Source: a virus | Taxonomy: Duplodnaviria; Heunggongvirae; Uroviricota; Caudoviricetes | DNA length: 40,582 nt | Strand: one strand, 5' to 3' | IMG/VR virus record: IMGVR_UViG_2778261692_000003 | Location: 1 to 40,582 of that record | Part shown: piece by piece, positions 31,217-31,513 of the stretch | Position numbering within the stretch: the stretch's first letter is position 1 | Layout: the number at the start of each line of letters is the position of its first letter | Translations under genes and position numbers: made by a program | Notes under the pieces: generated by a model | What the model saw: only the letters and a program-made list of their open reading frames with translations | Databases searched by the model: none | What the model was told of the DNA's origin: nothing

Positions 31217-31513
31217 ATGGAATTTCTGACAGTTTTTGTTGTTGTTTTGGTCATCATTCTTTTTGTTTTGCTAAGCATTAGCAAAAAGCTATCTCAAATG
31301 ATTGAACATAGCTCTAATCGAGCAAAAGAAGAAGAGCATCTAATTGATATAAAAGAGATTCTCTCTGATATAAAAATCACATTAGATGAAATAAAATACA
31401 CAACAGATCTAATTGAACAGTATAAAATACCAACCCCAAACGAGAGAAAAGCAATAGATCAATATCGTATTGACTTAGAAATCGACGAAATGCTAAGCAA
31501 TAGAAAGGACTAA
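31217..31513 (+). CDS. Membrane-anchored coiled-coil protein in rex-equivalent position (unknown function)
   Basis: 98 aa; N-terminal TM (FLTVFVVVLVIILFVLLSI) then charged helical region; GGAGGG RBS; AT-rich; directly downstream of cI, upstream of OL. Confidence 0.6.
   Translation: MEFLTVFVVVLVIILFVLLSISKKLSQMIEHSSNRAKEEEHLIDIKEILSDIKITLDEIKYTTDLIEQYKIPTPNERKAIDQYRIDLEIDEMLSNRKD

Follow-up and report, generated by a model that had tools for sequence, protein, structure and literature searches.

What does the small gene between the repressor gene cI and the left operator (OL) of a lambda-like prophage do for the lysogen? An open reading frame (ORF) for 98 amino acids (aa) at 31217-31513 of IMG/VR record IMGVR_UViG_2778261692_000003, a tailed virus (Caudoviricetes), raises this question. 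The whole stretch of 40,582 nucleotides (nt), positions 1 to 40,582 of that record, was analysed and is called the window here. Few stretches of a lambda-like prophage are transcribed in every lysogenic cell, and the one from cI to OL is among them; every gene of it that has been studied (rexAB, stk and hex) affects phage exclusion or prophage stability. Our analysis indicates that the ORF belongs to a small protein family whose members lie directly behind cI in ten lambda-like loci, and that its product may, tentatively, be a membrane-tethered factor that excludes other phages.

Results

The ORF is a protein-coding gene under selection

The ORF and the elements that define its slot are as follows.

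31217-31513, plus strand: ORF, 98 aa, member of phrog_18389; ATG at 31217, TAA at 31511-31513
31208-31213, plus strand: Shine-Dalgarno sequence GGAGGG of the ORF, 3 nt upstream of the ATG
30469-31176, plus strand: cI repressor gene, 235 aa, first cistron of the putative operon (Pfam HTH_3 and Peptidase_S24; PHROG match)
31518-31542, plus strand: intrinsic terminator that would close the cI-ORF transcript; stem 31518-31537, T-run TTTTT up to 31542
31669-31750: OL operators, ATAAC-N4-GTTAT type as at the right operator (OR), from a repeat search
31725-31753, plus strand: early leftward promoter PL, TTGACC-17-TATCTT, pointing to N, from a promoter scan
31948-32220, plus strand: N antiterminator gene, 90 aa, far edge of the slot (PF25694, E 1.6e-14; phrog_271)

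The plus strand of the window is laid out like the leftward half of the lambda immunity region. The cI product has the Ala-Gly cleavage site and both the Ser and Lys catalytic residues, and a spacer of 40 nt separates the cI stop at 31176 from the ORF. A first-pass annotation of this DNA had described an AT-rich gene in the rexAB-equivalent slot between the cI stop and OL, with a strong GGAGGG ribosome-binding site (RBS), its own intrinsic terminator, and a product with one N-terminal transmembrane helix and a charged helical remainder. Each of these features was found. The GC content is 0.31 in the ORF and 0.44 in cI, and residues 3-21 of the product form a hydrophobic segment (mean Kyte-Doolittle value 3.4) that is followed by charged, helical sequence. 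The terminator begins five bases past the ORF stop with a 7-bp stem containing 6 G-C pairs (folding free energy -16 kcal/mol), and an A-run 5' of it gives it a bidirectional appearance.

The ORF product matches the profile of phrog_18389, a family of unknown function, from residue 1 to 98 on profile positions 1-98 (E 1.9e-61). Compared with the Citrobacter freundii copy (77% protein identity), the nonsynonymous and synonymous substitution rates (dN and dS) are 0.128 and 0.824, and at this dN/dS of 0.156 the ORF is, by its substitutions, evolving under purifying selection. None of the 36 copies examined contains a stop or frameshift, and across codons 44-94 of these copies 18 codons vary only synonymously and 5 show conservative replacements. 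The synonymous variation rules out constraint at the DNA level as the explanation of the ORF. An RNA element is ruled out as well, since scanning both strands of 30900-32100 with Rfam gave nothing near threshold. Judged by how its copies vary, the ORF is a genuine protein-coding gene, far beyond a chance reading frame.

Of 5,426 complete E. coli genomes, 98-99 (about 2%) carry the gene, always on the chromosome and with the annotation of a hypothetical protein, and the carriers include the O26:H11 strain 11368 (WP_000394868.1) and strain H19. Among 50,697 phage records one carries the gene (Stx1a_10051), and a scan of species-representative genomes returned no relatives.

Members of the family lie directly behind cI

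Ten lambda-like loci hold a member of the family (the window, L001, L036, L037, L039, L043, L044, L045, L055 and L056). In all ten, the family gene shares its strand with an S24-type cI and begins 0-54 nt 3' of it. Most of the loci have a purine-rich Shine-Dalgarno sequence ahead of the start codon of the family gene, a hairpin and T-run follow the ORF stop immediately in eight, and N is next in order wherever the contig reaches far enough. The GC content of the ORF is below that of the adjacent cI in every locus. No partner gene is conserved among the neighbours: the N type, the replication module and the downstream genes all vary. Flank similarity assigns the more distant loci to phages of Yersinia, Erwinia and Klebsiella/Enterobacter types, the hosts being judged from the flanks only. 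The searched literature contains no earlier report of this placement behind cI, which spans ten different immunity types.

The ORF and the repressor gene do not share a history of divergence. Pairwise identity ranges from 18 to 72% among the cI proteins and from 26 to 77% among the ORF products, and the two similarities are uncorrelated (Spearman -0.08). Between the window and the Citrobacter copy the ORF is 77% identical, whereas cI is only 22-23% identical. DNA similarity between these two loci starts at the RBS and stops just past the terminator stem, and the terminator travels with the ORF, with the stem conserved and the loop different in the Citrobacter copy. These boundaries indicate that the mobile unit is the RBS, the ORF and the terminator. 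We infer that this unit, in which the terminator is usual rather than constant, is a promoter-less cassette dependent on transcription of cI.

The gaps of 0-54 nt to cI leave no space for a promoter of the ORF's own. A promoter scan found 4 signals, compared with 3.9 expected in shuffled sequence, and none stood above expectation. A candidate promoter within the 3' end of cI (31142-31170, 9/12 matches) was rejected; it was no better than the shuffled expectation and was absent from other cI types. Because there is no space for a promoter and the ORF's own terminator insulates it from PL, cotranscription with cI from the cI promoters in the lysogen would be the natural reading.

The product combines an anchor helix with a conserved acidic domain

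A word-indexed search found only near relatives of the ORF, from E. coli and Citrobacter. A profile search of 1.84 billion protein representatives added 14 further clusters (50% identity), all of 94-126 aa, and one family member comes from a Pelagicoccus genome (L005). All 19 aligned relatives match phrog_18389 alone, a small family that has been catalogued but is uncharacterised.

The family alignment has three parts. The N-terminal anchor helix is made up of V, L, I and F alone, without a polar, charged or small-residue motif; across the family its hydrophobicity is kept and its sequence is otherwise poorly conserved. The linker (residues 22-43) is variable, basic and then acidic. Residues 44-96 form a strongly conserved acidic domain, a helix-PTP-helix (helix-Pro-turn-helix) with the consensus I(K/R)Y(T/V)TD.IE.YKLP(T/S)..ER..ID.I..D.EI, in which Y69, P72, D81 and E88 are invariant in the family. 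An AlphaFold2 model has helices at 2-38, 45-68 and 74-96, with a predicted local distance difference test score (pLDDT) of 82 and a predicted template modelling score (pTM) of 0.29. A deeper alignment gave helices at 2-69 and 74-97 and did not improve confidence (pLDDT 77, pTM 0.29).

The first-pass annotation had called the product a coiled-coil protein. An a/d heptad pattern in residues 45-66 agrees with this, and a sequence-profile search of the PDB matched designed coiled coils and other composition-driven entries only, but the conserved unit is the helix-Pro-turn-helix, and the label is only partly apt.

In all 16 representatives, K and R are absent before the anchor helix and number 1-3 after it, and the part beyond the anchor has an isoelectric point of 4.2-5.4. 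From these charges we infer an N-out/C-in topology, in which the short N-terminus is predicted to lie outside and the acidic conserved domain in the cytoplasm.

Searches for a characterised relative

The statement of the first-pass annotation that the protein was not recognisable held up, as profile and structure searches gave no characterised homologue. Pfam, NCBIfam and PADLOC scans of the ORF protein and 19 aligned relatives found nothing consistent, and Foldseek gave no matches in PDB or BFVD.

Several specific identities were tried and rejected. A ZorB or MotB-type stator was suggested by weak ZorB matches of a few members (E 1e-4 to 4e-3); in the window protein the match covers residues 3-56, with the anchor and the following helix only. 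The anchor helix lacks D and E, the protein has only 98 aa and no ZorA-like gene is nearby. Homology with RexA or RexB had no match in Pfam, NCBIfam or PADLOC, and the ORF is a single gene with a single membrane helix. For 434 Hex (OL657226), hhalign gave the family alignment a probability of 0.1%. SieB (PF14163) and the superinfection-exclusion PHROGs were not matched at E values up to 1 (Pfam) and 0.01 (PHROGs). An i-spanin of the Rz type does not fit a gene in the immunity region with no embedded or adjacent lipoprotein gene and with charges that predict the opposite orientation, a comparison that did not extend to the window's own lysis cassette. Less clear-cut than these rejections is the comparison with type I and Hok-like small membrane toxins, which have fewer than about 60 aa and an antisense RNA antitoxin and are toxic when expressed; the product has 98 aa with a large conserved soluble domain, and no RNA family was matched on either strand.

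The slot behind cI holds different genes

The first-pass annotation had regarded the slot as a site of exchangeable cargo, and closely related cI genes support this. Behind a cI with 92% nucleotide identity to that of the window, the slot holds a DUF3024 cluster (L050; phage SH2026Stx1), and behind one with 79% nucleotide identity it holds no gene on that strand (L049). The DUF3024 protein and two hypothetical proteins behind cI are found at 3246-4618 of L050 and at 3115-4487 of L003. Window-type cI of at least 99% identity is present in 105 genomes and the ORF in 98-99. As related cI genes do without it, the ORF is, on this comparison, dispensable for immunity.

A convergent small gene of 68-69 aa lies on the minus strand between the terminator and OL in L049 (3361-3570), L055 (2402-2611) and L001 (6324-6530). 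It is DUF2767 in L055, and no family was matched in L001 or L049. The cultured Erwinia phage Midgardsormr38 (L053, 4323-5207) is about 94% identical to L044 in the flanks, yet its cI differs and its slot is filled by a P63C-domain protein. This adds a further case of an entire immunity-plus-cargo block swapped between otherwise similar phages.

In the decayed prophage L051 (NZ_CM194531.1, 603-6234), the replication genes and N are pseudogenised while cro, cI and the 98-aa ORF are intact. The integrase/torI region adjoins the pseudogenised genes. The intact cro-cI-ORF block could reflect selection for the immunity module, or merely recent decay.

A few members, all of them very distant, come from regions not recognisable as prophage, and the neighbours in the non-lambdoid loci L005, L040 and L047 are uninformative. 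In L058, a short metagenomic contig (1-1756), the distant member P0022 (126 aa) lies 82 nt 3' of a sigma-54-dependent response-regulator activator. This non-phage context is reminiscent of the activator PspF and its partner PspB, which is likewise small, anchored and helical.

Other features of the immunity region

The window holds the following further features around the cI-ORF unit; the last three were named from translation and position.

30394-30407, 30419-30432 and 30443-30456: OR, three ATAAC-N4-GTTAT operator palindromes, from a repeat search
30410-30381, minus strand: rightward promoter PR, TTTATA-18-TATAAT, from a promoter scan
27233-28684, minus strand: DnaB-type helicase gene; counterparts in the O26 prophage and phage SH2026Stx1 are annotated replicative DNA helicase
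28659-29549, minus strand: replication-initiator-like gene
29730-30110, minus strand: cII-like gene
30133-30378, minus strand: small ORF at the cro position

The promoter for repressor maintenance (PRM), which the consensus scan missed, presumably lies just 5' of cI on the plus strand, according to lambda-like geometry. A 16-mer, CCCGCCGAAATGCGGG, is found at 31824-31839 on the plus strand, 3' of PL and before N, and again at 30083-30098 on the minus strand, 3' of cro and before cII. It is able to fold into a 5-bp stem with a 6-nt loop, and the two sites are the positions expected for the nutL and nutR boxB elements of N (31948-32220). The genes that follow N in the early left operon, all on the plus strand, match PHROGs of unknown function (32139-32585, phrog_7374; 32766-33188, phrog_3054; 33267-33737, phrog_1636). 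The phrog_7374 gene probably starts at the ATG at 32223, since its profile match opens at residue 29; a start at 32139 would make it overlap N.

Discussion

Our data suggest that the repressor operon has the ORF as its second cistron, with no promoter of its own. PRM would drive it in the lysogen and the establishment promoter PRE while lysogeny is being established, and transcription would end at 31518-31542, before OL and PL. The product would be a single-pass inner-membrane protein with a two-residue N-terminus facing outward and about 75 residues in the cytoplasm. The anchor is unconserved and chemically featureless, and the domain is nearly constant behind unrelated repressors; therefore the tethered cytoplasmic domain may be the working part. 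It would bind a conserved partner where the membrane meets the cytoplasm and form no pore of its own. We propose, with a probability of about 0.4, that the product, working through this tethered domain, is an exclusion or abortive-infection factor expressed in the lysogen. As a one-gene accessory function, it would shield the lysogen against other phages, whose infection would either be stopped at an early, membrane-associated step or be aborted. The defence role is a guess from the precedents in the same slot.

The architecture and the position of the ORF each have known counterparts. In PspB and similar small regulators, a single membrane helix separates a short outer N-terminus from a helical tail in the cytoplasm, and the tail works by binding partners. 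The product shares this overall design of an N-terminal anchor and a cytoplasmic helical tail, but PspB is a host stress-response protein and not a phage protein, and no sequence relation to the ORF is detectable. RexA and RexB of lambda share with the ORF the slot after cI and before OL/PL, a membrane component, a role accessory to immunity, transcription from PRM (presumed for the ORF) and a terminator before OL. Unlike the ORF, Rex consists of two genes, for a soluble sensor of 279 aa and a four-helix membrane protein of 144 aa, with the internal promoter PLIT. The ORF encodes one single-pass protein of 98 aa without sequence similarity to either. RexA is a CI-binding protein that favours the switch to lytic growth (bioRxiv 10.1101/2021.04.19.439022).

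In phage 434, Hex is likewise the product of a single small gene that comes right behind cI, whose stop it overlaps or abuts, and that is carried on the PRM transcript. Hex is reported to exclude the heterologous phage P22, to stabilise the lysogen and to guard the 434 repressor against RecA-stimulated cleavage (PMC3564112). It is not homologous to the ORF product; as re-annotated (OL657226) it has 134 aa, an N-terminus like a signal peptide and a sequence that does not look helical. From its sequence, Hex is probably on the opposite side of the membrane from the conserved domain of the ORF product. Hex in OL657226 (L052, 3127-3531) starts with MIRIAALLSILLTTSANSEC, which resembles a signal peptide, and an exported Hex is hard to square with the model of Hex shielding a cytoplasmic repressor (PMC3564112). 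The OL657226 record notes that a wrong start codon was used in the Hex paper. The third counterpart is Stk of 933W, a kinase cotranscribed with cI, which resembles the ORF in slot and expression logic and, as cited in PMC3564112, aborts HK97 infection. Stk is a large soluble eukaryote-like kinase, unlike the 98-aa product, which has no kinase domain. The same paper summarises RexAB, 933W Stk and Hex, the precedents of exclusion genes cotranscribed from PRM (PMC3564112). An rRNA methyltransferase of a prophage from Shiga toxin-producing E. coli (PMC10810198) was considered as a further precedent and dropped; the text does not place its gene on the cI transcript.

Several observations weigh against an exclusion or abortive-infection factor of this design. 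Scans with PADLOC 2.0 defence models gave scattered single-member matches, none of them consistent, and no member of the family turned up in a defence island. It was also not found in other prophage hotspots; its phage occurrences are solely behind cI, as a component of the lysis-lysogeny switch would also show. The searched literature, queried by protein accession and by descriptions of such a gene, mentions the protein nowhere. With respect to structure, the topology is derived from the positive-inside rule alone, and the packing of the helices is uncertain, with a pTM of just 0.29, although locally the model is confident (pLDDT 77-82). The domain of the ORF product is predicted to face the cytoplasm, which would be unusual for an injection blocker; HK97 gp15, for example, faces the periplasm.

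The main rival reading, possible although unlikely, is that the ORF encodes a component of the lysis-lysogeny switch. Its acidic domain, tethered to the membrane, would then adjust how stable or how inducible the prophage is. It might bind or sequester a host factor that acts on S24 repressors or on CII/CIII, such as RecA filaments or FtsH/HflKC, or it might bind the S24 domain itself. An S24-type cI adjoins the gene in all ten lambda-like loci despite the divergence of both proteins (26-77% and 18-72% identity), which suggests an old and maintained association. This exclusive association across very different immunity types, and the absence of the family from other phage hotspots, fit a switch role just as well as they fit a role in defence. 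DinI acts on RecA by imitating DNA, and the acidic helical surface of the product could also mimic DNA. Two other occupants of the slot, Hex (PMC3564112) and RexA (bioRxiv 10.1101/2021.04.19.439022), have switch-related roles. However, the ORF and cI do not covary (Spearman -0.08), and the conserved domain hardly changes between loci whose cI genes are unrelated. A specific cI partner is thus unlikely, which leaves a host target or the generic S24 fold as the only partners that fit. Moreover, related cI genes manage without the ORF, the membrane tether would serve no obvious purpose, and the adjacency is equally explained by the lack of a promoter of the ORF's own. In its strongest form this proposal would make the family no exchangeable cargo but an unrecognised, ancient partner of S24-type cI across lambda-like phages of several enterobacterial genera, with a tethered acidic hairpin that couples the lysogeny switch, through RecA-dependent induction or CII/FtsH control, to the inner membrane; we consider that decidedly unlikely.

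A lysogenic-conversion factor, which would alter the envelope or stress physiology of the host and not the biology of the phage, also seems quite unlikely. Such a protein might be a small membrane regulator of a host transporter, sensor kinase or stress component, comparable to PspB, AcrZ, MgtS or SgrT. Its PspB-like architecture is consistent with this, although the sequence matched neither PspB nor any other family of small proteins. Distant members outside recognisable prophages (L058, behind the sigma-54 activator response regulator, and L005 from Pelagicoccus) and the intact gene in the decayed prophage L051 point in the same direction. The non-phage contexts, however, are single, short metagenomic contigs, and lambda-like immunity regions hold most of the family (10 of the 14 representative clusters and the query's own group).

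A membrane-damaging effector, in which phage-triggered coiled-coil oligomerisation would let the helices form a depolarising pore as a RexB- or holin-like, single-protein abortive infection system, is very improbable: the heptad pattern at 45-66, the profile matches to designed coiled coils, the membrane location and the Rex precedent in the same slot speak for it, but a single helix per subunit, made of V, L, I and F only, without a polar, charged or small-residue motif and with a sequence unconserved in the family, is a poor pore former, and the gene, which would be expressed constitutively in lysogens, is apparently non-toxic in about 2% of complete E. coli genomes.

Our study indicates that the phrog_18389 family is a compact, single-gene occupant of the cI-OL slot and that its carriers include O26:H11 Stx1 prophages. 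If the product excludes phages, it would be among the smallest known prophage defence determinants, and its design, a tethered domain in the cytoplasm, would be unusual. If the product tunes induction, this would bear on the release of Shiga toxin from O26:H11 Stx1 prophages. If the family is an ancient partner of S24-type cI, it would be a new conserved element of the textbook genetic switch.
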